From: a virus
Strand: one strand, 5' to 3'
Virus record (IMG/VR): IMGVR_UViG_3300012929_000018
Span: 18,503-82,502 of that record
Length of the DNA stretch: 64,000 nucleotides
In this document: one piece after another, positions 14,766 through 57,678 of the stretch
Layout of the letters: the number at the start of each line of letters is the position of its first letter
Position numbering within the stretch: the first letter of the stretch is position 1
Position numbers and translations under genes: made by a program
The notes under the pieces: model-generated
What the model saw: the letters and a program-made list of their open reading frames with translations, nothing else
The model's database searches: none
What the model was told of the DNA's origin: nothing

Positions 14766-15125
14766 CCACCACCGAAAAGGGTAGTGGCTACCTTAACCAC
14801 CACCAAGCCCACTTTCGTCGCAAGTGCTTTTAACGAATGGCCTTACGTGTATTTTGGGCACAAAACAGTGGTGGTAGCCAAATTCAAACCCTTCCGGCCG
14901 GAAGCTTGATTTTGAGCATAATATGATTATTTTTTTTTTCCAATGGAAGAAATAAGAAATGCCACTACCCACTACCTAAATCGAGAAGCCCTGCAACCCT
15001 GCTACATTCTACGCAATACCTATGATAAACGTTACCAAATTACAGGGCTGCAGGGCTTTAGGGAAGTAGGTGCCTAAGCAGGCAGTTACTCAGGGTGTCA
15101 AAATGGCACACTTCTTATATTTGCT
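14762..15125. other. Putative replication origin
   Basis: Non-coding region after primase-helicase with repeated CCAC(C/T)ACC / GGT(A/G)GTGG units in both orientations, a T10 tract in an AT-rich core, and inverted CAGGGYTG doublets. Confidence 0.5.
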
Positions 15126-15266
15126 GTTCGCGAATATCGAATATGAGAGGATTTGTAAAGGTTTCCGACGCTTTTCTTGAAACACTGTGGAGTTGGTGTC
15201 CGAATGCGCCAGTTTCTTCCGAATCGCGCCATTAATCCCGCCATTGTGTCGCGATTGGATGACGAG

Positions 15267-15339
15267 AGCCGGAGACAGGCTTCGAACCCGTGACCGTCGG
15301 TTTACAAAACCGCTGCTCTGCCGACTGAGCTACACCGGC
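15267..15339 (-). tRNA. tRNA-Thr(UGU), no encoded CCA, atypical
   Basis: GCCGGTG TA GCTC..GAGC A GCGGT TTTGTAA ACCGA CGGTC ACGGG TTCGAAG CCTGT CTCCGGC T. T:T mismatch in the acceptor stem, G:A in the anticodon stem. Confidence 0.8.
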
Positions 15340-15543
15340 TCTCGTCGCCCTTAGCCGCCCTTCGCGTCTTTGCTCGGGAGGATATATTTGATCACAGCCG
15401 CAATCGCTTGCCCCGCCTTGTGGAGAGGATTTGCTTACGCCGGAACCGCCGCGACCATACTCGCAGCCACTAAACCGATCGTGATAAGTTTCTTCATGAG
15501 CAGCAGCCTACTCCCCGCCCGGCGCCGCGCAACTACTAATTTC

Positions 15544-15571
15544 TTGAAAAATAGTAATTGGGGCGTATGCT
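15544..15571 (+). promoter_or_regulatory. Sigma70-like promoter
   Basis: TTGAAA-16 nt-TATGCT, ending 8 nt before ATG 15580. Confidence 0.45.
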
Positions 15572-15579
15572 CCCGGCCT

Positions 15580-15735
15580 ATGGCAGCTATTGTAACCCGC
15601 CCTGTGTGGCAACTGCTTCTGGCGATCTACCTGATCCTCGTTTGCGTCAACGCCTTCGTCGGCCTTGGGTCCGCGGCAATTATTGTCCCGATCCTCGCCG
15701 GTCTCGCTGGCCTCCTGATGCTTGTTGGAAAGTAA
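15580..15735 (+). CDS. Small two-TM membrane protein
   Basis: MAAIVTRPVWQLLLAIYLIL...LAGLAGLLMLVGK, entirely hydrophobic. Confidence 0.65.
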   Translation: MAAIVTRPVWQLLLAIYLILVCVNAFVGLGSAAIIVPILAGLAGLLMLVGK

Positions 15736-15738
15736 CCC

Positions 15739-16182
15739 GTGAAGCTCAAACTTATTTCTGAGGCCGGGCTCGGCTTAGCCCTGCTCTGCGCCCTCGTTGT
15801 AGTCCCGATTCTTCAACCGAAGCCCTATCGCCCGACTGGGCCGGACCCTGATGCCGACTCGCCTATTGTCATTTTACAGAGAATTGACGCAGACTCCGTG
15901 CAATGTAAGGCCAAGCCGACCTGTGTTTGGAAACGACACGGCGATGGGCACACTGCAACCTTTCATCTCGAACTTACTACCGTATGCCCGGCCGCTGGCG
16001 CCGACAAAACTTACGTTTCTCGCGAGGCTACCGTTGATGCGGCCAAGGACCAATCCGGTGAGGTTGGCGCGGCCCTTCTCGTGATGATGGCGAATGAAAT
16101 CGTCGCGGCGGCTGGGAAAGACGGATTCGAGATGACTCCTAAAGCCTTGCTGCAGAGTTGCAACATGGAAGAAGTGAAGTAA
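15739..16182 (+). CDS. Membrane-anchored hypothetical protein
   Basis: N-terminal TM followed by a Cys-containing soluble domain. Confidence 0.55.
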   Translation: MKLKLISEAGLGLALLCALVVVPILQPKPYRPTGPDPDADSPIVILQRIDADSVQCKAKPTCVWKRHGDGHTATFHLELTTVCPAAGADKTYVSREATVDAAKDQSGEVGAALLVMMANEIVAAAGKDGFEMTPKALLQSCNMEEVK

Positions 16183-16339
16183 TATCCCTCATGCCTGCTG
16201 AGAGCCAAGCCCAACGTGGATACCTGAATGCAAGATTCGGTCACGCATGGGTTAAGAAACATCATTTCGATAACAAGGGTGCTCTCCCCGCTCACGTCAA
16301 GCCAAAGCCGCGTAATCAACACGGCATCGGCCATTGACT

Positions 16340-16412
16340 AGGGCAGTAGCTTAGCGGCTAGAGCATCTGGTTTGGGGCCAGGGTGGCGTGAGTTCGAATC
16401 TCACTTGCCCTA
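16340..16412 (+). tRNA. tRNA-Pro(UGG), no encoded CCA
   Basis: AGGGCAG TA GCTT..GAGC A TCTGG TTTGGGG CCAGG GTGGC GTGAG TTCGAAT CTCAC TTGCCCT A. Confidence 0.85.
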
Positions 16413-16421
16413 GTCAGCGGC

Positions 16422-17273
16422 CTAATAATCCATCCCGCACACGAACGCGCGAGCAATTATCTTGAGAATCTTGCGCCGGTTCCTGCGGTGCTTCCGGCTT
16501 TCCTCGCCGAGCAGCCTCATCATCGCGGGCATCCTTGTGGCCCTGTGATACTTCATCGCCAATCGGTCGTTTGCGTTTGCCCAGCCTTGTCCCGCCCACT
16601 TCATTTCGCGGTAGCTGGCGCCGAGGCGCGGGTGCCACAGGTGAAGGATTTGGTTGCGAGTCGATTTGTGCTTGGCGTAAAGGGTGTCCAGAGACCGGAG
16701 CAGAGCCACATCCTCGCCGCCCCAGCCAACGAAGCGTTCGTCGAACCCGCCGAGAATGTTGTAAGCCTCGCGGGGAAACATCATAATCATCGCGCCATAC
16801 CGGTGCCCGTAACTGGCTTTGGTCGTGCTCTCAACATCGCATGCGTCCGGCGGTGTCGGAAACTTGTATGGGAACTTCGGCGCAGAGCCTAGCACTTTCA
16901 AAGTAGCGGCCTCAGTCAGCCGATACAGCTTTCGGTAAGGAACGAACCACAGTCGGTTGCCTTCTTTCTGCTCCTCGATGATGCGGTCGGCGCACCTATC
17001 AATCACGTCAGCGTCGATATAAGCGTCAGCGTCCAAGATCACGAGGACTTTACCGTTGGCCCGGCGAGCGGCTCGGTTCATCGCGCGCGTCTTGCAGAAA
17101 GGATTCCCTGCAGCCCTGCCGATGATAATCTCGCAGTCAGGCAGCGCGTTGCGCATATACTTAATCACCCAGCGTAAGATTTTGCGCCGATACTTGTCAC
17201 GCCCATGGAAGGGAATGAGCAAGCTGATCTTCGGCCGCCGGAGCTTGTGCTTATCTAAAATAGTTTTCCACAT
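16422..17273 (-). CDS. Glycosyltransferase (GT2/GT7-like)
   Basis: ISLLIPF, FCKTRAMNRAA, VILDAD (DxD), GGFDERFVGWGGED, HLWH. Confidence 0.9.
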   Translation of the reverse strand: MWKTILDKHKLRRPKISLLIPFHGRDKYRRKILRWVIKYMRNALPDCEIIIGRAAGNPFCKTRAMNRAARRANGKVLVILDADAYIDADVIDRCADRIIEEQKEGNRLWFVPYRKLYRLTEAATLKVLGSAPKFPYKFPTPPDACDVESTTKASYGHRYGAMIMMFPREAYNILGGFDERFVGWGGEDVALLRSLDTLYAKHKSTRNQILHLWHPRLGASYREMKWAGQGWANANDRLAMKYHRATRMPAMMRLLGEESRKHRRNRRKILKIIARAFVCGMDY

Positions 17274-17988
17274 CTTCAAATACCTCGAACAGTTGGTGCT
17301 GTAGATCGCTGATCTTGTGCGGGTCGGCAGTCATCAAGACACCAGGTTGAAATTTCATCCCTACACTAGCATGATAATCCCTCCACTTAAAGTCTCCACC
17401 TTCTTGATGGGCGTGGGTGATCATTCGCGGCGCCAACTCGATCCGGCGAGGGATAATGAAAGCGTCGGCAACGATCGCTCCGTGAAGGGAAGAGGTTACG
17501 ATCTTTTTGCACCGGCTGATTTCGCGAAGCACTTCCATCGGGTCTTGGGAAACGTCGATGATCCTCGGGTTGAATTTGGTGAACCGCGGGTCAAGAGCCA
17601 ACGTCTTGTCGGTCCAGTGGGGCACGATGCCAAGGTCGTATTCCTTATCGCGGTAGCCTACCAGTTCGTCTGCGAGTAAGCCGGGGTCGGCCATAACCAC
17701 ATCCCTCTTCAAACCTTTGGCGGTAAGGGGCCCGCGCACGGCAAGAAAAGTAGCGTGAGGTAGGTCAATCACGGTGCTTTCGTGGAGCTTACCTACCCCG
17801 GCAACTACTCCGGTCCAGTTCTTAGGTAGATGCCCTAGAATGGATCCGATCACAACTAGCTCAGCTTCTTCTGGCTTCGCCCAAACAGACTCGAGATTTG
17901 CGAATCTTCGGAGCAACATGGTCGCCAGCCGGTCGCCGAAGTTTGGTTTGTCTTTCCAAAAATATGCTTTTACGGCGGCGTGGATCAC
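17251..17988 (-). CDS. Polysaccharide pyruvyl transferase family protein (ExoV-like)
   Basis: PNFGDRL, VIGSIL, AVRGPLT, ADPGLL, GIVPH, TSSLHGAIVADAF. GTG start at 17988 is inferred. Confidence 0.88.
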   Translation of the reverse strand: MIHAAVKAYFWKDKPNFGDRLATMLLRRFANLESVWAKPEEAELVVIGSILGHLPKNWTGVVAGVGKLHESTVIDLPHATFLAVRGPLTAKGLKRDVVMADPGLLADELVGYRDKEYDLGIVPHWTDKTLALDPRFTKFNPRIIDVSQDPMEVLREISRCKKIVTSSLHGAIVADAFIIPRRIELAPRMITHAHQEGGDFKWRDYHASVGMKFQPGVLMTADPHKISDLQHQLFEVFEDVENYFR

Positions 17989-18039
17989 AACATTTAGTGT
18001 ATCACGGCTTCGTCCGCTTGCTGTGAAAAAGAAAAATTC

Positions 18040-18068
18040 TTGAAAAGTTTTTTGCCGGGGAGTAGATT
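18040..18068 (+). promoter_or_regulatory. Sigma70-like promoter
   Basis: TTGAAA-17 nt-TAGATT upstream of the GGAGGT RBS of ORF 18136. Confidence 0.5.
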
Positions 18069-18135
18069 TTCTCAGCCCGAAGTGGATTAAAGGCTGAACA
18101 GGTCCCAGCAGAATTGGACCCAACGGAGGTAATGA

Positions 18136-18672
18136 ATGAAGAAAGTAATAATCGGAACTCTGTGCAGCGTGGCCCTAGCACTAGGCGCCTATGCGCAGAC
18201 GAATGAGGTAAGCATCAAGCAAAGTGAACGCGGCCCAGCGATGGGTCAACATGAGCGGGTGCAAACCAAAACGGAAATGCGCGGGTCTCCCCGGCAAATC
18301 CATCGCATGCAGCGAGACCAAATCCGAGAAACCGCAGGTGAGAACCGGCGTATCGAGGAGCATGGAAACGCTGTAATTGAGCGCGGCCATCCACGGACTG
18401 AGGTGCGCTCGGAGCAGCGCGTTGAAACCCGCGGTGATCGGTTCTTCTTCTTCGGTGGGCGAGAGCTTCACCGTCGAGGCGACTTCGACCGTAACGACGT
18501 GCACTTCCGCATCGGATTCCACCCTCGATTCTGGTGGACCCAGCACTACACCAACATCGTATTGATCAACGGGTGTTGGTATTACGAGGACGGCGGGTTC
18601 TTCTATCCGGCATACGGATACGACCCTGATTGCAGTTACCCTGACCAAGTGATCTTCTCATTTGGCGACTAA
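18136..18672 (+). CDS. Secreted protein with aromatic-rich C-terminal domain (host-like)
   Basis: Signal peptide MKKVIIGTLCSVALALGAYA; WWTQHY..IVLINGCWYY..GFFYPAYGYDP; strong RBS. Confidence 0.75.
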   Translation: MKKVIIGTLCSVALALGAYAQTNEVSIKQSERGPAMGQHERVQTKTEMRGSPRQIHRMQRDQIRETAGENRRIEEHGNAVIERGHPRTEVRSEQRVETRGDRFFFFGGRELHRRGDFDRNDVHFRIGFHPRFWWTQHYTNIVLINGCWYYEDGGFFYPAYGYDPDCSYPDQVIFSFGD

Positions 18673-18688
18673 GGGCGGCGGTTAGATA

Positions 18689-18727
18689 AGACGCGTAGTT
18701 GGCAGAATCTGTCAGCTACGCGTTTTT
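18689..18727 (+). terminator. Rho-independent terminator
   Basis: ACGCGTAGTTGGCAG-AAT-CTGTCAGCTACGCGT followed by a T tract. Confidence 0.85.
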
Positions 18728-18767
18728 ACTTCTAGCATAATTTGGCTAATTTGTGTATAATTCGCGC

Positions 18768-18845
18768 ACCGGGATAGAGCAGCCTGGCCAGCTCGTCACG
18801 CTCATAACGTGAAGGTCGTGGGTTCAAATCCCACTCCCGGAACCA
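18768..18845 (+). tRNA. tRNA-Met(CAU), initiator-like, with CCA
   Basis: A1:A72 mismatch, GAGC/GCTC D stem, CTCATAA loop, TTCAAAT T loop, ACCA end. TGTGTATAAT extended -10 just upstream. Confidence 0.9.
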
Positions 18846-18850
18846 ATTGT

Positions 18851-19111
18851 ATGCGCTTTATACTACTGTTCTTATTGCTGGTCTCACGCTTGACTTACGC
18901 CGGTGATACCTACGACTGCATCAACTCGAAGGGTGACTACATCAATTACGGACCGCCCGCACCGCCGCGGAACACCTCAATCGTTGGCGCGATCGATTCC
19001 CGCCGATACGACCGGTGGCTCCCGATGTTGAGCCAAGAAGATGAACGCCGCCTGCTGTTTATACAGGCTGCTCGACTGCGCGAATACGCCATTCTTTATG
19101 CCAACCCCTGA
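18851..19111 (+). CDS. Small secreted hypothetical protein
   Basis: Signal-peptide-like MRFILLFLLLVSRLTYA. Confidence 0.5.
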   Translation: MRFILLFLLLVSRLTYAGDTYDCINSKGDYINYGPPAPPRNTSIVGAIDSRRYDRWLPMLSQEDERRLLFIQAARLREYAILYANP

Positions 19112-19340
19112 ACAACGCGATGAAGGCCGCCCCTGTGATTGGGAGCCAGAAGAACACGACCCGATTATGGTGGCCGCAATCAAGCGGCTTACTGATGAAG
19201 TTCAGCGATTGAAGCGTGAGGAACGCGAGAAGGCCATCAATGCCGTCTCGGAACAATGCACCTGCACCGCCCTTTTCACGAACGCCTTATGCCCAATTCA
19301 CGGCCCAGCGTTCACTCGCCACCTCGAAAATAGAAAGTAA
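19098..19340 (+). CDS. Hypothetical protein (CTC...CPIHG Zn-finger-like)
   Basis: Packed ORF with a Cys/His motif. Confidence 0.55.
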   Translation: MPTPEQRDEGRPCDWEPEEHDPIMVAAIKRLTDEVQRLKREEREKAINAVSEQCTCTALFTNALCPIHGPAFTRHLENRK

Positions 19341-19342
19341 CT

Positions 19343-19603
19343 ATGCCCTCCCTCGTATCCGTATCCGAAGCAACCCGAGCCATTCAAAGCCCGTTGTTGC
19401 GCGCCATTGAAACCGTCGTCTCCGAAGAGATTGAAAAAGTCATCGAAGACGCGAAACGCAAAGTCGAGCAGAGAGTTCGCGGTGAAGTCGGTGCCATAGC
19501 CGCCCGTGTCCTTGAGAAGTTCAGCTTCGAGAGGCTGGGGCAGGAGTTAGTGATTCGTGTTGAATTCCCTGGCGCTAAGAGTAAGCTGCCGGGTGATCTG
19601 TAA
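19343..19603 (+). CDS. Hypothetical protein
   Basis: AGAAAG upstream; helical 86-aa ORF. Confidence 0.6.
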   Translation: MPSLVSVSEATRAIQSPLLRAIETVVSEEIEKVIEDAKRKVEQRVRGEVGAIAARVLEKFSFERLGQELVIRVEFPGAKSKLPGDL

Positions 19604-19886
19604 ACCCGTAACCCCGATCCTCGAATGCCCGGTTTGTCCGGCGACGTGGGATCTGGGAAAGGTAGGAGTTCGCGGGCTCGATTATCAAGTGCCGATGCAT
19701 GTCCGAGTTCAATTTCGGGCACCGGCGATTCTCTGCGCGGGCTCGCACAAGAAGCTTCCGCTAACCTTTTACGACGCCGCGCCGTTGTCTCATGGCGAGC
19801 CACTGGCCTAACCGCCGGTGCGTGAACTGAGACAAGTTGGCTCCCTACGTTGGAGAGCGACTTTCTGTCTCACTGGCGATTAAGGT

Positions 19887-19958
19887 GTGACCGTAGCTCA
19901 ATTGGCAGAGCCCTCGGTTGTGGACCTTGAGGTGCGAGTTCGATCCTCGTCGGTCACC
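19887..19958 (+). tRNA. tRNA-His(GUG), degenerate (possible pseudo-tRNA)
   Basis: GTGACCG/CGGTCAC acceptor, C73, TTGTGGA loop. Anticodon stem CTCGG/CCTTG has two mismatches; T instead of G at -1; followed by CCT rather than CCA. Confidence 0.7.
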
Positions 19959-19970
19959 CCTTAGTCGCTC

Positions 19971-20001
19971 ACCTTCGGGTTTTTATAGGAAAAAATTTTT
20001 T
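19971..20001. repeat. T-tract/A-tract motif, copy 1 of 3 (others 32862-32890, 36794-36825)
   Basis: ACCTTCGGGTTTTTATAGGAAAAAATTTTTT vs ACCTCGGTTTTTTGAGGGAAAAAATTTTT vs ACCTCGGGTTTTTTGGGAGCAAAAAATTTCT. Confidence 0.7.
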
Positions 20002-20102
20002 AACCTCCCCTCATCACCTACACACCTGCACGTGCGGGGGCCCGCGGGGGTAGGGGTGGGTCTGCTTCTGGGAGCAGGCATAAGCGCGCTCGCGTGATGC
20101 CT

Positions 20103-20115
20103 GCGCATAATGCGC
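20103..20115 (+). promoter_or_regulatory. GCGCATAATGCGC palindromic promoter/operator motif, copy 1 of 7
   Basis: Other copies at 20688, 20886, 22711, 32005, 33559, 36860. All are intergenic or at gene ends and lie upstream of a purine-rich RBS. Confidence 0.8.
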
Positions 20116-20128
20116 GGGAGATGGTCGA

Positions 20129-20671
20129 ATGAAAATCACACGAACAAGTCCATCGCTCAAACAATCGAACATCAATCACGTGTGCGAGAGCGCACGTATG
20201 CACGGTCGAACACGCTCGCCTCATTGGAGTTGGAACGCCGAAGCAGAAGTCAATTCCCTACGGGAAAACCGGCACGATTTCAGAATGCCGAAGGCATTAG
20301 ACCGGAAAGCCCAAGGCAAATGGGTGAACGAATACACGCCTAAGGTGCAGCCCTGCGACGGTGTAACCGTGACGCCTGTAAAGGGAAACAGGGTTGCATG
20401 GCTGAGTGAGGAACAAACTAAACGTTTCAAAATCACAATCACGAATGACGCAGGCGTTGAAGAACAGGCACGCATGAGCATGAAATTCACCACCTTAGCA
20501 ATTCTTACTTACGGAAAAGTAGTAGAATTTGTTCGCTGCCACCGCGGCGTAAACGTGCGTGACATGCGCACAGACACGCTCAGATCACCCGCGTATGTCA
20601 CCGCTGAAATTCGCCGCTTAATTCCGGTTAATGCGGAACAAGCGATTGAGCAGCTATTCGCGACTGAATAG
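20129..20671 (+). CDS. Hypothetical early protein
   Basis: Directly follows motif copy 1 and GGGAG; start may lie downstream. Confidence 0.55.
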   Translation: MKITRTSPSLKQSNINHVCESARMHGRTRSPHWSWNAEAEVNSLRENRHDFRMPKALDRKAQGKWVNEYTPKVQPCDGVTVTPVKGNRVAWLSEEQTKRFKITITNDAGVEEQARMSMKFTTLAILTYGKVVEFVRCHRGVNVRDMRTDTLRSPAYVTAEIRRLIPVNAEQAIEQLFATE

Positions 20672-20687
20672 CACGCACATCACGCTT

Positions 20688-20700
20688 GCGCATAATGCGT
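20688..20700 (+). promoter_or_regulatory. GCGCATAATGCG(T) motif copy 2
   Basis: One mismatch; followed by GAAGAAAG and ATG 20716. Confidence 0.75.
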
Positions 20701-20715
20701 GTGAAGAAAGTAACC

Positions 20716-20850
20716 ATGAAAAACAAATTATCTGAAATCCTGTTCGATCTGAGTGAGCGCCTGCCTAAATGCCTGAACGCATTAGCGTGGACGCTCGACC
20801 GTGTGAGCCGCGCTATGGTAGCGAATAGCGTTGACTCAATCGGACTTTGA
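20716..20850 (+). CDS. Small hypothetical protein (44 aa, MKNKLSEILFDLSERLPKC...)
   Basis: Manual translation; motif plus RBS upstream. Confidence 0.55.
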   Translation: MKNKLSEILFDLSERLPKCLNALAWTLDRVSRAMVANSVDSIGL

Positions 20851-20885
20851 CTGTCACACGCCTTCGAGCGCAGCGCGCTATGTGT

Positions 20886-20898
20886 GCGCATAATGCGC
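20886..20898 (+). promoter_or_regulatory. GCGCATAATGCGC motif copy 3
   Basis: Exact copy, immediately before structured RNA A. Confidence 0.8.
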
Positions 20899-21386
20899 TC
20901 GAAGGAAGTGACCGCCAGTCGGTTGCTCGGAAATGAGCGAAGCAGAGTAGCGAGTGAATGAAAGCGGGTAGTCGCATGAGTCGCCACAGCGTCAATCTCA
21001 TGTGTAAGCTGCGAATAGCTCGTGAGGGTAGCTACAAGCGTGTTCTAGTCCGGAAAATTAACCATCCGGTTTCGTAAGGGTGTTCAATGATGCTACACCC
21101 ACGGTGAGGCCCGAACAAACGGGTGCGTAGAAGCGAGTTGGCTCTCGTGGAACGCATCACGCAAAAGCCTGATCGTCGGATATTAAAAACCAAATTCAAC
21201 ACGCATACGAGTGACGCGACGTTATTCGTAGATGGCTGCGCGACGCAGCTATCAGCGTGCAGCCCTGTGGCCCTGCTACAATGTTCCAGAATACGCGTGA
21301 TGCGTAGGACGGCAGCATTTCAGGGACACTAGCCAGTGCATCTCACACGTGACGTGTGACGTGTTACAGGGTTGCAATCTGATACC
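20899..21386 (+). ncRNA. Large structured ncRNA candidate A (~490 nt)
   Basis: No credible ORF. More than 10 helices, including the 11-bp ACGCATCACGC/GCGTGATGCGT enclosing a three-way junction with two 10-bp hairpins. Confidence 0.7.
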
Positions 21387-21815
21387 ATGAGTGATTTAAC
21401 CATTCAAGCGAACGGTCAGGCTCTAACGCTCGGAAACTTCGGCGGGGTCACTAAACCCGACTTCCGAACGAAAAACGCGAAGGAGTATCTGTCCGCGCAT
21501 TTCGGTGTCACTGTAGTCAAAGGCATGAAAATGCCTGACGTGAAAGCGGCTGTCCTCGCGACGGGCGTTACGGAAGCGAATTTCAAACTCGCCCGTAAAA
21601 CCTACGACGGGAACAAGCAACAGTATCACGTCGAGTGCCGCAAAGTGACGGCGCTTCTCGCGGCTGACCCGAATTATCGGCAGTCCATTCGCAAGATGAA
21701 AACGGGTGCGGTTGTGACGTTCCGTAAAATCGGGGCCGTTGCTGCCAAGCAATCTGCCGCCGCCCGTATCGCGCAGTTGGAAGCGAAGCTCGCAGCGGCG
21801 GGCATCGCGGCCTAA
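21387..21815 (+). CDS. Basic Lys/Ala-rich protein (142 aa) between two structured RNAs
   Basis: Clean ORF, many K/R residues, C-terminal coiled-coil-like AAARIAQLEAKLAAA. Confidence 0.8.
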   Translation: MSDLTIQANGQALTLGNFGGVTKPDFRTKNAKEYLSAHFGVTVVKGMKMPDVKAAVLATGVTEANFKLARKTYDGNKQQYHVECRKVTALLAADPNYRQSIRKMKTGAVVTFRKIGAVAAKQSAAARIAQLEAKLAAAGIAA

Positions 21816-22326
21816 TCGCGTCGGCGCGACTTCGGAGTGTGAATGTCTGTGGGTGCGCAAGCGCCCACAGCAATTCGCTCTCACCTAAGGTGAACAGCTA
21901 GGCATACGCTATGAAAACAGTGCGGCTTTAGGGAACGATAGCGAAGAAAAGTGGCGAAGCGTAAATCGGGTTGGCCCGTAAAGCCTAACGATCAGGCGCG
22001 CGCAAGTCGCACCCCGCGACTAGGCCCCAAACGGCGAAAGCACGTTGCAACGTGCCCGCTGCGTTGGTCAGCGGCGGGTGTGCGGCGCATGTTGAGTGCT
22101 CAGTCAGGCTGGGTGGAAGTAGGCGCGTGAACATGACGCGCGCTGAGAAGCGGCGGGCCAAAAGCTCGCAAAATAGGCCCATGCTGCCGCGCGGTGGCAT
22201 GTGACGCACCCGGCCTGACTGCGCACAAGCGTAGTAGATGTGATTTCGGTTACAGCTAGTTCTTTGAATTACAACTAAGATTACGTTCTCACTGGCACGC
22301 TGGCTCTGCCTAAACCAGCACAATTT
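21816..22326 (+). ncRNA. Large structured ncRNA candidate B (~510 nt)
   Basis: More than 12 helices, including the 15-bp CAGTCAGGCTGGGTG/CACCCGGCCTGACTG closing a multibranch loop of four hairpins. GNRA loops (GCAA, GAGA). Confidence 0.75.
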
Positions 22327-22521
22327 ATGAACCATGCAATGACACCACGCGAAAACTATCGCCCTTATACGCCTGCGGAAATCCAGGCTATTCGTGCGGC
22401 CGGGCGCATCACGCGCGCCGCGCGATGGGACTGCGCCAACCTCGAACAAAGGATGGAAATGCACCCTGAATTGAACCCGAACAAGCGGTGGTTTGAGCAG
22501 AAGGCGTGGAAACTACTATGA
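22327..22521 (+). CDS. Hypothetical protein
   Basis: Packed small ORF. Confidence 0.55.
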   Translation: MNHAMTPRENYRPYTPAEIQAIRAAGRITRAARWDCANLEQRMEMHPELNPNKRWFEQKAWKLL

Positions 22522-22718
22522 CCATCGAAGTAAAACGAGACGGAAAGACGGTCTGCACGATCATCAAAGGCTCGGGCAGAATTAGCAGCGACAAGCTGAA
22601 ATTGCTCGCGATCAGATATAACGCGGGCCATTTAAGCACTTTCAACGATATGCGCGAGGTAGTTCGACAGGCGAAAGTCATTCGCTTGGAGAAAGCTCTC
22701 GCGGTAATGTGCGCATAA
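22518..22718 (+). CDS. Hypothetical protein
   Basis: Overlaps the previous stop; ends within motif copy 4. Confidence 0.55.
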   Translation: MTIEVKRDGKTVCTIIKGSGRISSDKLKLLAIRYNAGHLSTFNDMREVVRQAKVIRLEKALAVMCA

Positions 22719-22723
22719 TGCGC
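22711..22723 (+). promoter_or_regulatory. GCGCATAATGCGC motif copy 4
   Basis: Exact copy upstream of GAAAGGA RBS and ATG 22756. Confidence 0.8.
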
Positions 22724-22755
22724 GCGAAGCAGATAACCAACAACGAAAGGAAACC

Positions 22756-22947
22756 ATGAAACACACCATCACACTGACAAAGGACAAAGAGACGAAGAAC
22801 AAAATTCGTTTCTCGAACGAACCCACCGACGCGATTAGCGGAAGCTTATACATCGCGAAGGAACTCGTCGGCAACGTGAATGCGATTCAGTTCGCAATCG
22901 AGTTGCCCGAGGTTGCGGTGACTGCTCCGACTCCGGTCGAAGCGTAG
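22756..22947 (+). CDS. Hypothetical protein (KETKNKIRF...GSLYIAK)
   Basis: Strong RBS. Confidence 0.7.
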   Translation: MKHTITLTKDKETKNKIRFSNEPTDAISGSLYIAKELVGNVNAIQFAIELPEVAVTAPTPVEA

Positions 22948-22997
22948 TTGATACGCAGCGCCCCGTGTGATAACGTGGGCGTTGCAATCAGTTACGT

Positions 22998-23073
22998 TGT
23001 AAGGTAGCTCAGTTGGTAGAGCAGGCGCCTGTTAAGCGCCGCGTCGTAGGTTCGACTCCTACCCTTACAGCCA
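22998..23073 (+). tRNA. tRNA-Asn(GUU) with CCA
   Basis: Canonical cloverleaf: TGTAAGG/CCTTACA, GGCGC CTGTTAA GCGCC, GTAGG TTCGACT CCTAC, G73 CCA. Confidence 0.95.
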
Positions 23074-23077
23074 ACAC

Positions 23078-23148
23078 ACAGGGGGCGAAGGCAGTAGCGC
23101 GAACTCCAAATCCGCGTGTGATGAGTTCGATTCTCATACCCTGTGCCA
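23078..23148 (+). tRNA. tRNA-Trp(CCA) with truncated D-arm
   Basis: ACAGGG/CCCTGT acceptor, CTCCAAA loop, ATGAG TTCGATT CTCAT, G73 CCA. Only 14 nt between acceptor and anticodon stems. Confidence 0.7.
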
Positions 23149-23176
23149 CTTTTTGACTAGGTTGGTTGCGCAACAA

Positions 23177-23268
23177 TGACCTGCACCTTGCATCGCGGTA
23201 GCCGTTGCAGCGGTGGAACGAAGTAAGAGCGTTGTTGTCGATGGTCCGATTCCATCGCTGGTCACCCA
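23177..23268 (+). ncRNA. tRNA-like RNA with 8-bp acceptor, T-arm and CCA end
   Basis: TGACCTGC/GCTGGTCA, GATGG-TCCGATT-CCATC, C-CCA end. Oversized first arm and no canonical anticodon loop. Confidence 0.55.
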
Positions 23269-23272
23269 CTTT

Positions 23273-24432
23273 ATGAACGAGACAGACGAACGCCTGCAAA
23301 GGCAATGGGCGCAGATTGAGAGCAATCGACGCGCCGACAAGATCGTGCGCCGTCGTAAGATCGCGCAAGTCACGGGCGGCTGTGACCGCTGCCCGCCTCA
23401 CGCGAAGGAGAACGCGCGCCTCAAAGGGCGTAAGCCGCGCGAGGATAAGCACAAGAATCACCGCACGGTTAAGTGGAGTAGCCACCATTCCGTGCCTATT
23501 TACTAATTTATGAACAGAGGAAACAGACAGGCGGACATACAGTTCCGCGATATGCTGTGGCGTTACGACCCACGGTCAATCGAAAGCGATACACCCACGG
23601 CCGAGTGGACGTGTGCGCCCGAACCTAAGTGCGTTGTCGCACGTAGTTTGGGTGAAAGTAGAGTTGTGAACGCACGGGGCGTTCGCAGAGCAGCATGAGT
23701 TGGGAAACAATCGGGTGGCTATTGACGATACCGGGATGGTGCGTTATAGGCATCACAGCAATCATCAAACTATGCAAACCACAATAGAAACGCTCCCTAA
23801 GCGCCGCGGCGTTGTCGCGCGAGCTAACGGGATTACGGATAGCTACGGCAAGCAATATATTCGCATGAGCGATGGTAGCTTGCGCAAATTAAACGCAGTT
23901 ACTGAGCCGCAACAGCCGCTCGTTCTCGGTGGGTTCGAGGTATGAGTGAGATTCACACAGATGAGTGGAAGCATCGCCGTGACACGTTGGTCGGATTCGT
24001 GATTATGTGCAATAACAACAATTGCTCTAATCGCCCATTCGATGACGCGCGCAGCGTGCGACCTGTGATCACCTGTGAAAACGTGCTCGAAGCAATGCGC
24101 GAGCGCATGCCGGACATTACGGCAGCGCAGCGTGTGGATTTCGTGCATGTCGCGAAGGGATTCATACCAATCAAGTAGGAGACAAAACTATGGCAAATCG
24201 ACAGACAAGGTGGTTGCTCGCCCACGGGCGCGGCACCAAAAACGTGGTGGGCAGCAGCCCAGCGCGTGCAGAGCATATTGACCGCCCGCTATTTCATGGC
24301 GTGACGTGCAATACTGCGAACAAGAAAACCAAGCCGCGTGACTCACTCGGCAAGTTGCGGACGTTGAGCAGCAAGCGAGTGCTCGACAAGCGCATCACGG
24401 CTTACGCGGTCAATCCAATTTACGCATCATGA
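23273..24432 (+). other. Cluster of five small hypothetical ORFs (23273-23506, 23510-23698, 23772-23945, 23942-24178, 24190-24432)
   Basis: Tightly packed co-oriented ORFs; several are Arg/Lys-rich. Confidence 0.55.
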
Positions 24433-24459
24433 AGCCGCCGTTCTGGATTTTCTACCAAG

Positions 24460-25038
24460 TTATGATGGTAGTGATACTGGCGCTGTCGGCGCTGGTAGCT
24501 GTGCCGTTGTGGGCGGCGTTTGAGTTTGCGATGCTTCCTTGGCATCTTCACCGGATGCATCGGAGACAATCTCGCCCTCGATCACGACGGGAGTAGGTTC
24601 ATCGTCGGCGCTCATCGCCTCATTGATGTTGATGAGTGTCTGTGATACCACATCCTGAGTGTCGAGACCTGCGGCGCGCCGAGCAATTTTGTCAGCGAGT
24701 TCAGCTTCGCGGAAATTGCTCGGCGCCTTGGCCTTCATCAATTTCAGCGAATCATGGGCTAAGTTGAAAGCTACCTTGCGGTGGTTTTCACCTTTCTCCA
24801 ACCATTCATCGGCTTTCTTGGCAATGGCATTCTCAGCGGCCTTTTCAGCGGCTCGCGTTTGGATAGCCCCGATCATGCGTGATACGAGCGTCAATCGCTT
24901 GCGGTTCACCCGCCTGCGAATGGTGTTCGCCGATACGCCAAATCGGGCCGAAAGCTCCTGAATGTTAAGGCATTCGGCGGTGGCTGCATCTTGAATGGCG
25001 ACCCAAGGGATACCTTTGGTGGGCGGTCTCTTCTCCAT
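24460..25038 (-). CDS. HTH protein, probable terminase small subunit
   Basis: N-terminal HTH (IQELSARFGVSANTIRRR), helical oligomerisation-like middle (DKIARRAAGLD), acidic tail with VIEGEIV typical of TerS. Confidence 0.6.
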   Translation of the reverse strand: MEKRPPTKGIPWVAIQDAATAECLNIQELSARFGVSANTIRRRVNRKRLTLVSRMIGAIQTRAAEKAAENAIAKKADEWLEKGENHRKVAFNLAHDSLKLMKAKAPSNFREAELADKIARRAAGLDTQDVVSQTLININEAMSADDEPTPVVIEGEIVSDASGEDAKEASQTQTPPTTAQLPAPTAPVSLPS

Positions 25039-25066
25039 GTGTGACCGCAACCTTACGACAAACTTT

Positions 25067-25545
25067 ATGGATAAGCAAGACGAAACGGTAGATCGTTGCA
25101 CCCGCATACGCGCGCCATGGACAAAGTGGCGTTTGTGTGTCGGCGTGGAGACGAAATACATGCCGATCGTTATGGCCGGGCTCTCTAACGAGGGCGCGCT
25201 CAAGGTCGGCATGATTACAGCTTGCCAGAGCAAGCTTGAGGGCGGGATTATTGTTCTACGCCCTTTACACGGAGCAAATTGATGGACATAAATCAAACGC
25301 ACGACGCCATCCAGAAGGCGATGAGCGACGCTAGGGAAACTCCCGAATACAAGCAAGAAGGCGAGGAACTGAAAAAGTTTAACCCGCGGAAGCGCGGTGG
25401 CGCTGCGTATCCTAAACGCAGCGGCATGTCACGGCGCAAGCTACGAGCAAAACAACTCGCGCCGCCGATCACACAGGAGCGCACGAATGCGTTGCTCGAC
25501 GCTGCGCTGAAAGTTTGGAGTTTGAAGCATGGATACACAGACTAA
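25067..25545 (+). other. Two small hypothetical ORFs (25067-25282, 25282-25545)
   Basis: Coupled TGATG junction. Confidence 0.5.
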
Positions 25546-26278
25546 CGACAGACCCAAGATGCGGATAGACTTCCCATCGCAATACGCGTGGGAACAATAC
25601 CTTCGCGACCAGCCTGTGCCAGCATTACTCGGCTATCGTTCGATGCTAGAAGTGGCACTCGACGCGCCAACCCCGCCCACGCAGCTACGCCTGGATATGC
25701 GCACGCGCACAGGTAATGTGCCGCATCATGCCAGTGCTGATGTGGTGAAGTCGGATTACTTGTCGAATGTTATGTCACCCATCGGGTTACAGAAGGTCGT
25801 GCGTAAGGTGTGCTCGGTCATTAAGAAAAGCGGCGTCGAGTTCGATTCGATTGCATTCCGTGGATTCAGTGGAGCGTTGGTTGCGCCGCTGGTCGCCTGT
25901 CGATTGAAGAAAGGATTCCTCGCGGTGCGCAAGCACAAGGATAACGAGGATTGTCATTCGAGCTATCCTGTCGAGGGCGCAGTCAAAGCGCATTGCCATT
26001 ACATAATCATTGACGACATTATCAGCAGCGGCGCAACCGTCTGGAACATCGTTACCGAACTCAACACTTTCAAATATATTGATGTTTCCACTAACGGGAA
26101 CACCGACTACCAGATCTTCAAACGCAAGTGCGTGGGTGTGTTCCTTTACAACTCATGGGTGAGCGATAAGGGTAAGGGACACGGCTTCGACTTCGAGACG
26201 CGCGAGATTCATGCTGCCTACGGTGCTGACACCGAGGATTCATTTCATCTGCCTGTTTGGTCGTTCTCGGCAAAATAG
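25529..26278 (+). CDS. Type I phosphoribosyltransferase-domain protein
   Basis: PRPP-binding motif YIIIDDIISSGATV; upstream FDSIAFRGFSGALVA and AVRK. Confidence 0.85.
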   Translation: MDTQTNDRPKMRIDFPSQYAWEQYLRDQPVPALLGYRSMLEVALDAPTPPTQLRLDMRTRTGNVPHHASADVVKSDYLSNVMSPIGLQKVVRKVCSVIKKSGVEFDSIAFRGFSGALVAPLVACRLKKGFLAVRKHKDNEDCHSSYPVEGAVKAHCHYIIIDDIISSGATVWNIVTELNTFKYIDVSTNGNTDYQIFKRKCVGVFLYNSWVSDKGKGHGFDFETREIHAAYGADTEDSFHLPVWSFSAK

Positions 26279-26280
26279 GC

Positions 26281-26310
26281 TTGACAACAACTAACGAAAA
26301 GGAGTAGAAC
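26281..26310 (+). promoter_or_regulatory. Sigma70-like promoter
   Basis: TTGACA-18 nt-TAGAAC. Confidence 0.5.
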
Positions 26311-26453
26311 GAATTTATGACCAGATTAAAACAATGGATTGCGTGGCGCTATCGCCACCACTTCGTGTTCAAGTGCATTCATCCACGCGGCTGTGAGTTC
26401 TGCTCGTGGTGTGGGTTTGGGCACTACCGAAGCAAGTATTGGGCGGGACACAG

Positions 26454-28406
26454 ATGAACGGACGAAACAAAAGCACTGCAACCCTGCCACCCTGCAACCC
26501 TGAACGGGGTAATCCGAACTTCGTGAGCATCATTGCTCAGTCACTGTGGTTCGTGGAAATGATGCCGCAGGGCTACAGGCACGGAGAGGAACGGCGCAAT
26601 GAGGTGTTCATGATGAACGTGACACCCGCTGAGTTCCAATGCCTGCAATACAAGAAGATGCGCGACTTCAAGCGAGTTCGCTTAGGTGAACAGGCGCTCG
26701 CGAATCATCGCAAGATCGACAATTTCAGGCCGATGTTCGGCACTCTGAGTCGGAGTCAACGACTCGCAAAACGGGAAAGGAAGAATGAAAGACGTAAAGA
26801 TAAAGCTAACGTTCCAACGTGTGCATAACATAGGCCGCGGCGGAACGGTCAACCAAAAGTATCAACTCAATCAAATTGAGAACGCGGTGACCGCGCGAGT
26901 TGCTAGCCCAGAGGCGGGCGCGTGGACGATCTATCGCGTGGGTGACATAGTGTCAGAGGCCCACGTGCAAGAGTTCGTCGCCGACAAACACTTCTACGAA
27001 GTGAAGGTGAAGTCATGACAGTTCAAGAATTCTACACCGACGAGAGTAAGTGGTGCAAGGACACGCTGTCAGACGGCAAAGGGGCGACGTGCCTACTCGG
27101 CGCGCTGTCCTCGTGTCATCAAACGAAGGGCGCCTACACGCAGGCATTGGGACAGCTTGTAGCTGCAATCCAAGCCTACGTGGGCTACACTTCGGTTGCT
27201 CGATTCAACGACGCCGAGACAACCACCTTCGCGGACATTGTGAAGGTAGTGAGAATGGCGGGTGTATAATGGAATCAATCAAAATGATTAAGCGTGACGT
27301 GGTGGGCGCGGGCACCGGGCCTAAGTTGTGCCCGGTCGCACGCGCGTTGAAGCGCCACTTCGGAGCGGAGCAATCAAGCTGTGGCTTCACAACATGCAAT
27401 ATCGAGATACGGAGCGGCCCTCGAACAGTCGAGCGGCGCTACTTCGATTTGGATAATAAAACTGCGGTGAAGATTCACAAATTCGAGGATATGCCGGGAA
27501 CTGAGGTTGGGCCTTGGCGCCTGCCTCACACAATCAAACTAACGGAGACCACATGAGCGTGGATACCAATCAAGATGAAACCAACCTGCGCTATGCGCTC
27601 ACACAACCAGACCGCACCGTGTATGAGAAACTACGCGCGCACCTGATTGAGCAGCATGGCTATGATGGGTTTCGTGAGATTCAAAGGAGTGCATTTCGCG
27701 TGCTCGCGAGTTTGTGCTCAGGATAATTTATGTTACTAAGCGAATGCTGTAGCGCCCCACCTTGGGGCACCGAAGAATACGGAATCTGTGGTGACTGCAA
27801 AGAGCATTGCGGATTCTATGACGACGAGGAACCTGTGCGCGAGCGCATGGAGTTCTCACCCGAACAACAGGCAATCATCGACAAGTTGATGCTGCCGGTA
27901 TGCGTGGAGTGCGATCAGCCAGTGGCTGTATTCAGCGACGGCGGCACACTCCACCACAACAACAGCGGACAGATCGACGCCGAGAGCGACGCCGATCATG
28001 CGCCGCGCATCAAGGAAGGTTGAATGAGCACATGGGCCAAGACTTTTGCGGCGGACCAGCACGCTAGGCGTGTATCTGGAATGCGAACATGGTCAGTGCG
28101 GTGCGATCAATGCGCCGTGCTGGTTATCAACAATGTGGTATGCCATGAGCACGGCTGCCCAACACAACGAAAGAAACGATGAACACAGAACAACGCAGAG
28201 ATGTGCGCGGGGCGCTGATTAAGGTCGGCTTCAACCGCGGATATAGCATCGGCGACGATCAGATCGAACGAGTAGTCCATGCCGTCGCCGGTGTGGAAGG
28301 TGAGCGCCGCAAAGGGTGTTACACCGAGCTATTCAAACACCCAGACGGGACGCTCGTGTCGGTAACGTGGGCTGAGAAAAGCCACCTTCCGTCGAGGAAC
28401 TGCTAA
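26454..28406 (+). other. Cluster of small hypothetical ORFs (26454-26828, 26785-27018, 27015-27269, 27269-27556, 27553-27726, 27730-28023, 28179-28406)
   Basis: Overlapping start/stop codons. 27015 carries W.K....G..CLLGA...FND, a pattern common in phage hypotheticals. Confidence 0.6.
26471..26502. repeat. 8-bp-period repeat array (CAGGGYTG family, 4 units)
   Basis: AAGCACTG CAACCCTG CCACCCTG CAACCCTG. Confidence 0.75.
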
Positions 28407-28412
28407 CAATTT

Positions 28413-29111
28413 ATGGCAAGGGAAACCAAACAACAAAGAAAAGAATCCAAGCTACAACGCGACCGCTTGCGGATTCTGCTAGACGTAGTGTCGCAACTAG
28501 ACGAGCACAAGCTCATAGCTGAGCAGGGCGTCTATGTTAAATTCAGCCCGAAGGTGTCCAGTCGTGCTATCAACAAGCGCGGCGACATGCAATCGAACCT
28601 CAATAACCTCGTGAGCAAGCGTAAGCCGTGCCGAGTGTGCGCGCTTGGCGCATGCTTCATCAGCGCGGTGACGTTGTTCGACAAGGTGCAGACTCAGGAC
28701 ATTCTGGCTGAGGAATTGCTTCTCAAGACGAACACTCGTGACGGGATTCGGCACGACGTTGAAGAAGCCAACATGCGCGAGAAGTTGCTGCCTTACTTCA
28801 ACTCGTTGGAGTTGGGCGTAATCGAAGCCTTGTTCGAGGACAAAGCGAACTTCATCGGCGGTGAGACGCAAGACTTCCCCGATCAAGATTTCGAGGATGA
28901 ACGTCAAGCATACGACGACGCGGCGATACTTCAACAATTGTTGAATGCGACCGACTCGACGGCTGACCGGCTGCGTTGGATTATGAACGCGGCGGCGAAC
29001 CTCGTCCACACTGGCAAAGCGATCAACGTGCGTGGTTTCAGAGACCAAGTGCTCGTATCGCTTGGCAGCGATGATTGGTTCAATTCAGTTCGAGACAGCA
29101 ACGACCTGTAA
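28413..29111 (+). CDS. Hypothetical protein (CRVCALGA motif)
   Basis: 232-aa ORF with RBS. Confidence 0.7.
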   Translation: MARETKQQRKESKLQRDRLRILLDVVSQLDEHKLIAEQGVYVKFSPKVSSRAINKRGDMQSNLNNLVSKRKPCRVCALGACFISAVTLFDKVQTQDILAEELLLKTNTRDGIRHDVEEANMREKLLPYFNSLELGVIEALFEDKANFIGGETQDFPDQDFEDERQAYDDAAILQQLLNATDSTADRLRWIMNAAANLVHTGKAINVRGFRDQVLVSLGSDDWFNSVRDSNDL

Positions 29112-29143
29112 TCATGTCAGCGCCTCGGTGACGGGGCGCTGCA

Positions 29144-29656
29144 ATGATTATGAGCAAAATACAACTAAAACCAGAAGCTGTGCGCCTATTGCGCGCAGTC
29201 CAAAAACAAATCCGTAAGGCGCCCACATCTTTCGATATGAGCGTCATCGCGGAGAAAGCCAAGTATAAGGAAATCACGGCAAGCGTGATTCTAAACAACG
29301 AGCTACTTCCGCCTTGCGGCACGACGGCGTGCATTGCAGGCTGGGTGCTGATCAAAAGCAATCAACCGTTCGAGGGTAATTCCCCGTTGAGTCGTGCTGC
29401 TGATATACTCGGCCTCAACAACGAAAGCGACGGAAGCGACTACGGACAGTTGTTCCTGTCGAGCAAGTGGCCCAAGTATAGTAAGCGCGACAATCAGCTT
29501 ATGCATAAGCTGTTTCGGTTGGACAAGATTCGCGACGACAAGCTCATCAACGGGCGGTCCACGCGTATCATCAACAGTCGCATCAAGCGGGTGATTAAGG
29601 AGCGCGGTCAGTTAGCGATCAAGCGCATCGACCTGCTGATCGACAAAGGAATATGA
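29144..29656 (+). CDS. Hypothetical protein (CGTTACIAGW motif)
   Basis: Motif recurrent in phage hypotheticals. Confidence 0.7.
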   Translation: MIMSKIQLKPEAVRLLRAVQKQIRKAPTSFDMSVIAEKAKYKEITASVILNNELLPPCGTTACIAGWVLIKSNQPFEGNSPLSRAADILGLNNESDGSDYGQLFLSSKWPKYSKRDNQLMHKLFRLDKIRDDKLINGRSTRIINSRIKRVIKERGQLAIKRIDLLIDKGI

Positions 29657-55292: not shown

Positions 55293-55293
55293 G

Positions 55294-57649: not shown

Positions 57650-57678
57650 ATGTTACAGGGTTGCAGGGGTTTAGTCAA
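57650..57678 (-). promoter_or_regulatory. Sigma70-like promoter with a CAGGGYTG doublet as spacer
   Basis: Minus strand TTGACT-aaacccctgcaaccctg(17)-TAACAT, ending 9 nt before ATG 57640. Confidence 0.6.

Follow-up and report, generated by a model that had tools for sequence, protein, structure and literature searches.

The locus and its relatives

The window analysed here, a stretch of 64,000 nucleotides (nt), comprises bases 18503-82502 of the 82,502-base IMG/VR virus record IMGVR_UViG_3300012929_000018, which CheckV rates as complete. It encodes a family-A DNA polymerase, a ligase, a helicase-nuclease and an rIIA homologue; the structural genes, including an open reading frame (ORF) of 2658 amino acids (aa), have no match in Pfam, PHROG or the GenBank phages (n = 50,697). 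The subject of this study, designated RNA A, is the stretch at positions 20899-21386, which is bounded by a 44-aa ORF (20716-20850) and by a 142-aa ORF that encodes a small basic protein. It sits in an early-looking region, where very small plus-strand genes are mixed with five transfer RNA (tRNA) genes (15266-23073); tRNA-His (19887-19960) lies upstream of it and tRNA-Asn (22998-23073) downstream. Seven neighbouring small proteins have no PHROG family. A consensus scan of 19800-23200 found neither a sigma-70-type promoter nor a terminator-like site on the plus strand, and in particular no intrinsic terminator between RNA A and the 142-aa gene, Rho-dependent sites being outside its scope. An earlier, sequence-only reading of the window had proposed that this stretch is a nested, multibranched RNA, serving either as a folded non-coding RNA (ncRNA) or as a long regulatory 5' leader of the basic protein.

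The 142-aa gene itself is under purifying selection, as its third codon positions diverge far more than the first and second. Among 5.8 billion proteins, its product has nine homologues (54-92% identity). A Pfam search with ten aligned homologues gave no family at the cut-off, with chance-level matches below it and no assignment to the N family, and no sequence match was found in the PDB. When an AlphaFold model (mean predicted local distance difference test score, 73.6) was compared with known folds, Foldseek found nothing in the PDB or BFVD at E values up to 0.001, VIA-align returned generic helical hairpins at best (Z 4.5), and the ESM Atlas yielded no usable match. One homologue (P0004) carries an N-terminal extension ending in VTGLQSDT, which is the read-through translation of the 3' end of RNA A in the window. 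That the 142-aa gene lacks a Shine-Dalgarno sequence was not taken as a peculiarity, since a Shine-Dalgarno 4-mer precedes the first start of 14 of 73 ORFs, compared with a background of 13%.

Relatives were sought in the metagenomes of the Joint Genome Institute by a pattern scan with a protein alignment, which led to four loci (L003, L004, L005 and L006). The last of these was discarded as unrelated; it encodes a bacterial membrane protein with one short peptide in common. The alignment used below, A2, thus has four rows: the window, L003 and L004, which stand for three diverged lineages, and the near-duplicate L005. Identity to the window over the region is 88% for L003, 74% for L004 and 99.5% for L005, which adds almost no variation. 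Among the contigs of four runs, further diverged relatives were present, in pieces, in the soil metagenome runs X2, X4 and X5. The distribution appears narrow, all lineages coming from soil metagenomes. The GenBank phages gave no match to 20600-21900 by blastn or to the 142-aa protein by tblastn. IMG/VR was scanned with peptide patterns from alignment A1, the 142-aa protein and the 180-aa protein encoded upstream, and the GTDB genomes with those from alignment A1, in each case without a match; exact-pattern scans for three conserved RNA blocks in IMG/VR and one in the GTDB genomes found nothing either. RNA A directly precedes the 142-aa gene in the window and in L003, L004 and L005, that is, in every locus recovered. 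The small-ORF region upstream could not be aligned in L003, where the two bins just upstream of the motif described below contain 85 and 112 gap columns; in L004, indels interrupt the alignment on that side of the motif. L003 carries tRNA-Met and tRNA-His upstream of its counterpart of RNA A.

A conserved plus-strand fold

Over RNA A, the window is identical to L003 at 445 of 487 positions (91%) and to L004 at 378 of 478 (79%), and bases 21000-21099 are 100% identical to L003. For the adjacent 142-aa gene, the corresponding identities are 83% and 68%, with 66% and 47% at third codon positions and 92% and 79% at the first and second. Thus, RNA A, although non-coding, matches in conservation those codon positions at which the protein is constrained by purifying selection.

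All three types of stop codon occur in all six frames of 20899-21386, and comparison with L003, L004 and L005 revealed no conserved ORF on either strand. A 69-aa plus-strand ORF is broken in L003 and L004, and a 56-aa minus-strand ORF in L005 and L004. One might still suppose that the stretch consists of translated micro-ORFs or is the remnant of a decaying gene, with hairpins that are incidental. The window, L003 and L005 all have an uninterrupted 39-aa ORF beginning with ATG (20958-21077 of the window), and a frame of 17-21 codons that begins with GTG at 20908 is open in all three lineages. However, the 39-aa ORF is frameshifted in L004 by a 1-nt insertion, and the three codon positions of the 69-aa ORF have similar numbers of substitutions (8/10/9 for L003 and 21/20/17 for L004). 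Moreover, complete identity to L003 over 21000-21099, set against 66% at the third positions of the neighbouring gene, is the opposite of a coding pattern, and a decaying gene would not outdo its intact neighbour in conservation. This explanation is therefore considered highly improbable. The sequence-only reading had allowed that coverage by translated micro-ORFs would overturn its proposal, and the disruption of the 69-aa and 39-aa ORFs in relatives answers that point in part.

The predicted minimum free energy of the plus strand was -176.3 kcal/mol, compared with -158.3 +/- 5.9 for 100 dinucleotide shuffles (z = -3.03), none of which was as low; the minus strand gave a z of -2.21. With alignment A2 as input, RNAalifold predicted 163 pairs, 23 of which have changed on both sides with pairing kept, and an independent count found standard pairs in 98.3% of 635 cells. 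When the 3' partners were slid by -3 to +3 columns, the 23 compensatory pairs dropped to 0, 5, 1, 1, 3 and 2. None of 500 shuffles, in a control that ignores phylogeny, reached the observed value of any measure. When folded individually, L003 and L004 form the same hairpins, the same 3' domain and the core of the same closing helix (z = -2.14 and -4.41, respectively). The aligned set shows no variation in the 5' third or in the hairpins 21050-21069 and 21078-21100. In one relative's contig among the matches listed for run X4, 21079 G>A is accompanied by 21099 C>T, so that a GGGTGT/ACACCC pair is kept.

The two strands differ in this respect. The consensus fold has an energy of -186.8 kcal/mol on the plus strand and -145.7 on its reverse complement, and 21 pairs vary on one side only but remain paired through G-U. 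These G-U pairs would be A-C mismatches on the other strand and the upstream motif is oriented, which points to a plus-strand RNA rather than a DNA element. Conservation above that of the adjacent gene, the 23 compensatory pairs, the stronger plus-strand fold and the lack of a conserved ORF together support the view that 20899-21386 specifies a real, evolutionarily conserved, multi-domain folded RNA of the plus strand. As judged by comparison of the lineages, our data show RNA A to be non-coding, selected, structured, strand-specific and always placed between the motif and the gene.

The coordinates are collected in Table 1. In the 5' hairpins, covariation is absent because their pairs do not vary. 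The closing helix of Domain III (helix 19), which the sequence-only reading had missed, is built from CAGCCCTG and CAGGGTTG words. When each sequence is folded separately, its core of 11-12 base pairs (bp) has a pair probability of about 1.0; this core stops 11 nt short of the ATG of the 142-aa gene. A loop-loop pairing between TTGGCT (21141-21146) and AGCCAG (21331-21336) was tried and rejected, as only a 4-bp core is invariant and its flanks do not covary.

Table 1. Features of RNA A and its flanks (window coordinates)
Feature	Position	Strand	Remarks
Promoter-like motif GCGCATAATGCGC	20886-20898	+	1 of 7 exact GCGCATAATGCG copies; then GAAGGAAGTGACC, GCC, no ATG
RNA A, multi-domain structured non-coding RNA	20901-21386	+	Non-coding tests, conservation, covariation, strand; RNA runs on into start codon at 21387
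Two small 5' hairpins	20910-20924, 20925-20938	+	Pairs invariant
Domain I, branched stem ending in hairpin 20973-21004	20941-21033	+	Helix 9: 2 compensatory pairs, 100% paired
Helix	20973-20980/20997-21004	+	2 compensatory pairs
Domain II	21038-21204	+	Invariant hairpins 21050-21069 and 21078-21100; long irregular arm 21101-21176
Domain II closing helix	21038-21044/21198-21204	+	Weakly supported
Helix	21101-21110/21167-21176	+	1 compensatory pair
Helix	21120-21128/21152-21161	+	3 compensatory pairs, 100% paired
Helix	21133-21137/21144-21148	+	4 compensatory pairs
A-rich conserved stretch, predicted single-stranded	21177-21197	+	Alignment and consensus fold
Two adjacent 10-bp hairpins with G-Y-G-A-Y loops	21206-21230, 21231-21253	+	4 and 3 compensatory pairs, 100% paired
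Helix	21206-21216/21220-21230	+	4 compensatory pairs
Helix	21234-21240/21244-21250	+	3 compensatory pairs
Domain III	21251-21383	+	Closing helix 21251-21269/21365-21383 encloses two arms
Domain III, arm 1	21271-21325	+	Contains GTGAT-loop hairpin 21292-21306
Helix	21280-21287/21311-21319	+	3 compensatory pairs
Helix	21292-21297/21301-21306	+	1 compensatory pair, 100% paired
Domain III, arm 2, hairpin with GTGAC loop	21338-21364	+	2 compensatory pairs
Helix	21338-21348/21354-21364	+	2 compensatory pairs
142-aa basic protein gene	21387-21815	+	Isoelectric point 10.1; 22 K+R vs 9 D+E; no known family

All 11 helices listed in the sequence-only reading are present in the window, each at the coordinates given there. 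Covariation among relatives, which it had named as a check, bears it out for the most part: its 76 pairs are 95.7% paired on A2 and include 13 compensatory changes, compared with 0-2 in the slid controls. GCATGAG/CTCATGT, TACGAGTGAC/GTTATTCGTA, GATGGCTGCG/CGCAGCTATC and TCACACG/CGTGTGA are backed by covariation, CCGGA/TCCGG and GGGTGT/ACACCC are invariant, and TTCTA/TAGAA is retained except for one wobble and one gap in L004. The nested architecture proposed there thus stands in seven of the 11 helices, conserved or covarying, but not in the enclosing 11-bp helix and three small ones. AGCTG/TAGCT and GCCCG/CGGGT have two and three of their five pairs broken in L004, the weak CACGC/GCGTG is one pair short in L003 and likewise in L004, and mismatches in the "perfect 11-bp" helix (21152/21295) number one in L003 and three in L004 (90.9% paired, one compensatory change). 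The arms of the last instead form local covarying helices, 21120-21128/21152-21161 (three compensatory changes) and the hairpin 21292-21306 (one), both of which are 100% paired. A switch between the 11-bp and the local arrangements may exist in the window's own lineage, but is not conserved. The CAGGGYTG motifs, also pointed out in that reading, proved real as arms of 21251-21269/21365-21383 and 21271-21275/21321-21325. As regards its two suggestions for what the RNA is, a folded, selected plus-strand RNA is supported, while leader and separate ncRNA are not separated by these data.

The non-coding stretch on the other side of the 142-aa gene (21816-22326) is also of note, as the most stable 488-nt windows of the 64 kb, after correction for GC content, start at 21839, 21717 and 21961 and together cover 21717-22450. 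It contains no G-Y-G-A-Y hairpin. Positions 21900-22200 are poorly conserved (54-77% identity to L003, with many gaps); in L004 the whole stretch measures just ~240 nt.

Promoter-like motif, repeated loops and recurring words

The motif preceding RNA A belongs to a set of seven exact copies of GCGCATAATGCG, all on the plus strand (20103, 20688, 20886, 22711, 32005, 33559 and 36860). In the other six, GAAAGGA-like purines begin about 4 nt after the motif and an ATG comes within about 25-45 nt. The copy at 20886 has the same purines (GAAGGAAGTGACC) and then GCC, without an ATG; it is retained at the same place in L003 (2499) and L004 (417), where the ATG is absent too. The motif is therefore read as a putative phage-specific promoter or 5'-end signal, with the 5' end of the RNA probably about 7 nt after CATAAT, near 20901. 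Taken together, the copies have the form GCGCATAATGC, with a short and constant spacing to a GAAAGGA-like run of purines and an ATG, every one on the plus strand. Copies in relatives were found at 1505, 2122, 2321, 2499 and 4410 of L003 and at 231 and 417 of L004. ATCACGC-like words occur just upstream of two copies of the motif.

Written as GCGCA-TAA-TGCGC, the motif could be thought of as a hairpin promoter for an N4-like virion RNA polymerase, and this possibility was considered. However, both copies in L004 read ...TGCAC, which breaks the palindrome and argues against a required hairpin; the linear sequence, not the hairpin, seems to be the conserved feature. The 2658-aa ORF, which lies on the minus strand in the late region (47328-55304), has no match in Pfam, in PHROG or, by tblastn, among the 50,697 GenBank phages. 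Those of its neighbours that were tested, four late ORFs, have no PHROG family either.

The purine run is also followed by the GTG at 20908, from which a frame of 17 codons extends over 20908-20961. It comprises 17, 17 and 21 codons in the three lineages and stays open in L004 despite a 3-nt insertion and a 1-nt deletion, and it may encode a leader peptide. Since this GTG is only 1 nt away from AGGA, its translation seems unlikely.

Four non-overlapping hairpins in 21206-21364 have a G-Y-G-A-Y apical pentaloop closed by C-G. Window-wide, such hairpins with a stem of at least 5 pairs number nine on the plus strand and one on the minus strand, compared with 2.08 +/- 1.42 in shuffles, and five of the nine (two of them overlapping) fall within 21206-21367. 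In L003 and L004, the stems of the four hairpins vary in a compensatory way but their loops remain G-Y-G-A-Y. A loop that is conserved on top of a covarying stem usually marks a recognition site for a protein or a tertiary contact, and the four hairpins may serve as one or the other. Elsewhere, GCGAC pentaloops with 6-bp stems occur at 18473-18489 and 19851-19867, the second being 20 nt upstream of tRNA-His.

The word TTACAGGGTTGCA, with up to two mismatches, has 10 copies in the window, compared with 1.15 expected. Its sites are at 14992-15052, 20386-20398, 21364-21376, 26477-26505, 31723-31735, 57368-57380 and 57653-57665; they include an inverted pair at 14992/15040 and three tandem octamers at 26477-26505 (minus strand). 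One exact copy is located 11-25 nt before the ATG at 57640, in the 41-nt gap that separates two late minus-strand genes. The word may be bound by a protein, or it may just be a sequence favoured in stems. The longest complementarity between RNA A and other transcripts is 15 nt long (57651-57665), with ~0.06 expected by chance, and is borderline.

Such recurrence would be in keeping with the idea that the stretch acts at the level of DNA, as a cluster of protein sites or a single-strand initiation or origin region, with its inverted repeats (such as the CAGGGTTGCA and GCGTGATGCG words, also present elsewhere in the genome) as DNA sites. The abundance of TTACAGGGTTGCA, including the octamers and the late-gene copy at 57653-57665, agrees with this idea, as do words akin to ACGCATCACGC, one arm of the 11-bp helix: a word complementary to 21292-21305 over 14 nt recurs at 7905-7918, and the related GCGCATCACGCG at 22404-22416. 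On the contrary, the covarying helices differ in sequence between lineages with only the pairing kept, the 21 one-sided G-U changes make sense on the plus strand only, and the minus-strand consensus is ~41 kcal/mol weaker. The element also starts exactly at the oriented, promoter-like motif. A DNA-level role is thus regarded as improbable.

Known RNAs, leaders and the role of RNA A

A cmscan of the whole window with Rfam 15 (4227 models) at gathering thresholds returned only the five tRNAs. At E values up to 10, the region 20000-23000 gave two chance-level matches outside RNA A, and 20880-21400 alone (521 bases) gave none. At the level of these models, RNA A is therefore not a member of ROOL, GOLLD, OLE, RNase P, tmRNA, 6S RNA, introns, riboswitches or described phage motifs. 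A self-splicing group I or II intron was rejected, since Rfam gave no match and the flanking ORFs are unrelated small genes, the upstream one of which is not conserved in L003. The RNA of a type III (ToxIN-like) toxin-antitoxin system was likewise rejected, as no family of direct repeats lies inside 20899-21386 (18000-30000 searched) and the hairpins share only their loops. Literature on large phage ncRNAs, structured phage RNA motifs and nut-type leaders held no description of RNA A, the candidate lists of Fremin et al. being outside this comparison.

The closest parallels fall into two groups. The first is that of the large RNAs ROOL and GOLLD, which are described as occurring in phages and prophages, often near tRNA islands, and as having no known function (PMC12286853). 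In the available part of that account, the protein partner of ROOL is not identified, and the profiles of both RNAs were taken from Rfam (PMC12286853). As far as they are described there, these RNAs resemble RNA A in being phage-encoded, several hundred nucleotides long and multi-domain, in lying in or next to a tRNA island, and in lacking a known partner or function. RNA A differs from them in three ways: it is not matched by their Rfam models, it is immediately followed by a protein gene whose start codon lies beside its last helix, and its distribution is very narrow, in soil metagenomes only.

By analogy, RNA A could be a stand-alone large phage RNA of ~490 nt, stable and acting in trans, either by itself or as a ribonucleoprotein (RNP) with the basic protein. 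Its role would then be akin to that of ROOL and GOLLD, and its place before the gene would reflect co-expression, not regulation. The size and multi-domain architecture fit this explanation, as do conservation above that of the adjacent gene (with 21000-21099 unchanged in L003) and the location among five tRNAs, as reported for ROOL and GOLLD in the text consulted (PMC12286853). The shared loops of the four hairpins could be protein sites or tertiary contacts. However, none of the 4227 Rfam families matched the 521 bases even at E values up to 10, and no plus-strand terminator-like site or other recognisable 3' end precedes the gene. In addition, the 3' closing helix comes as near as 3-11 nt to the start codon, which hints at coupling to the mRNA, and the spread is narrow, with nine protein homologues among 5.8 billion and none in IMG/VR, the GTDB genomes or the GenBank phages. 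A stand-alone RNA is a serious possibility, but one that we hold only tentatively.

The second parallel is the leader of the lambda N gene. As described in the sources available, nutL lies ~200 bp upstream of N, the leader between them is highly structured, and N together with Nus factors represses N translation (PMC5725501); N proteins bind a pentaloop in boxB (PMC9074901). On this description, the pL-nutL-N region and RNA A, if the latter is a leader, have in common an early promoter or promoter-like site, a long structured leader, pentaloop hairpins and a gene for a small basic protein. Yet RNA A is about twice as long and far more elaborate than the lambda leader, and has four G-Y-G-A-Y hairpins where lambda has one boxB. 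Moreover, the 142-aa protein has no detectable relation to N, and no plus-strand terminator-like site lies downstream within 19800-23200. RNA A thus does not appear to be a member of the lambda N/nut system.

Fremin et al. (2023) reported 10,006 candidate structured RNAs from more than 5 million viral sequences, with candidate structured leaders upstream of gp32 and gp20, according to the part of their paper available (PMC10690425). Cis-regulatory phage leaders of this kind, as far as described, share with RNA A a conserved structure that is consistently found upstream of one gene family. Translational operators are typically tens of nucleotides long, whereas RNA A has ~486 nt and three branched domains.

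The explanation we favour, at a probability of roughly 40%, is that RNA A is transcribed together with the basic protein gene and serves it as a regulatory leader or a platform for protein binding. According to this model, an RNA of ~486 nt would start at the motif at 20886-20898 and be co-transcribed as the 5' leader of the 142-aa gene, where it would act as a protein-binding regulatory platform. The four G-Y-G-A-Y hairpins would be the sites of an RNA-binding protein, the most economical candidate for which is the downstream basic protein. Binding might stabilise or remodel the 3' domain, with its closing helix 3-11 nt from the start codon, and so set the output of the protein, which would amount to autogenous control. 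The arrangement would parallel the structured nutL-N leader of lambda. Dense folding might also shield a long untranslated RNA from degradation and premature termination.

Several observations weigh against this model or against parts of the structure on which it is built. The outer five pairs of helix 19, which reach position -3, have a pair probability of only 0.1-0.6, so that occlusion of the start site would be partial at best. Helix 19 itself shows no compensatory change, two one-sided changes and two broken pairs in L004, and is consistent with covariation, not proven by it. RNA A is 486 nt long, and its conservation equals or exceeds that of codon positions 1 and 2 of the protein gene; such length and conservation, far beyond the need of a simple operator, fit a role of the RNA's own. 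No terminator-like site was found on the plus strand in 19800-23200 that an antiterminator could override, and no match in Pfam, the PDB or the fold searches links the 142-aa protein to RNA binding. PF00940 had no match in the record either, but the control search likewise matched no genome and the result is thus uninformative; the promoter role of the motif is inferred.

As to the fold, the 488-nt stretch ranks 66th among 521 windows of the same size in the 64 kb after correction for GC content (z = -1.1), and folding energy alone would not single it out. The folding-energy test suggested with the sequence-only reading therefore gives a positive result against shuffles and an unremarkable one against the genome background; a criterion of that kind would miss RNA A, and it is the comparative signal that carries the case. 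The structure was predicted from the same alignment in which the changes were counted, and this contains only three diverged lineages and a 99.5% near-duplicate, so that an R-scape-type statistic is not possible. In addition, the 5' half is nearly invariant, and pairing there is left unprobed by variation.

To our knowledge, few bacterial or phage ncRNAs longer than ~400 nt with a conserved, intricate structure are known. OLE, ROOL and GOLLD are well-known large ncRNAs, and their functions are still poorly understood. RNA A adds to these a sequence-unrelated large structured RNA from uncultured soil phages. Unlike ROOL, as that RNA is described, it comes with an obvious candidate partner protein; together with a defined, promoter-like start, this makes both the regulatory and the RNP hypotheses testable on a cloned 1-kb fragment. 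It is conceivable, though on balance rather unlikely, that RNA A is the founder of a new class of large, ornate phage RNAs, transcribed early in infection from a phage-specific promoter within the tRNA island and acting in trans as an RNP with the co-transcribed basic protein, rather than a leader that only adjusts one gene. If this were true, its roles might include the sequestering or remodelling of a host RNA-binding machine, or the handling of the phage's unusual tRNAs.

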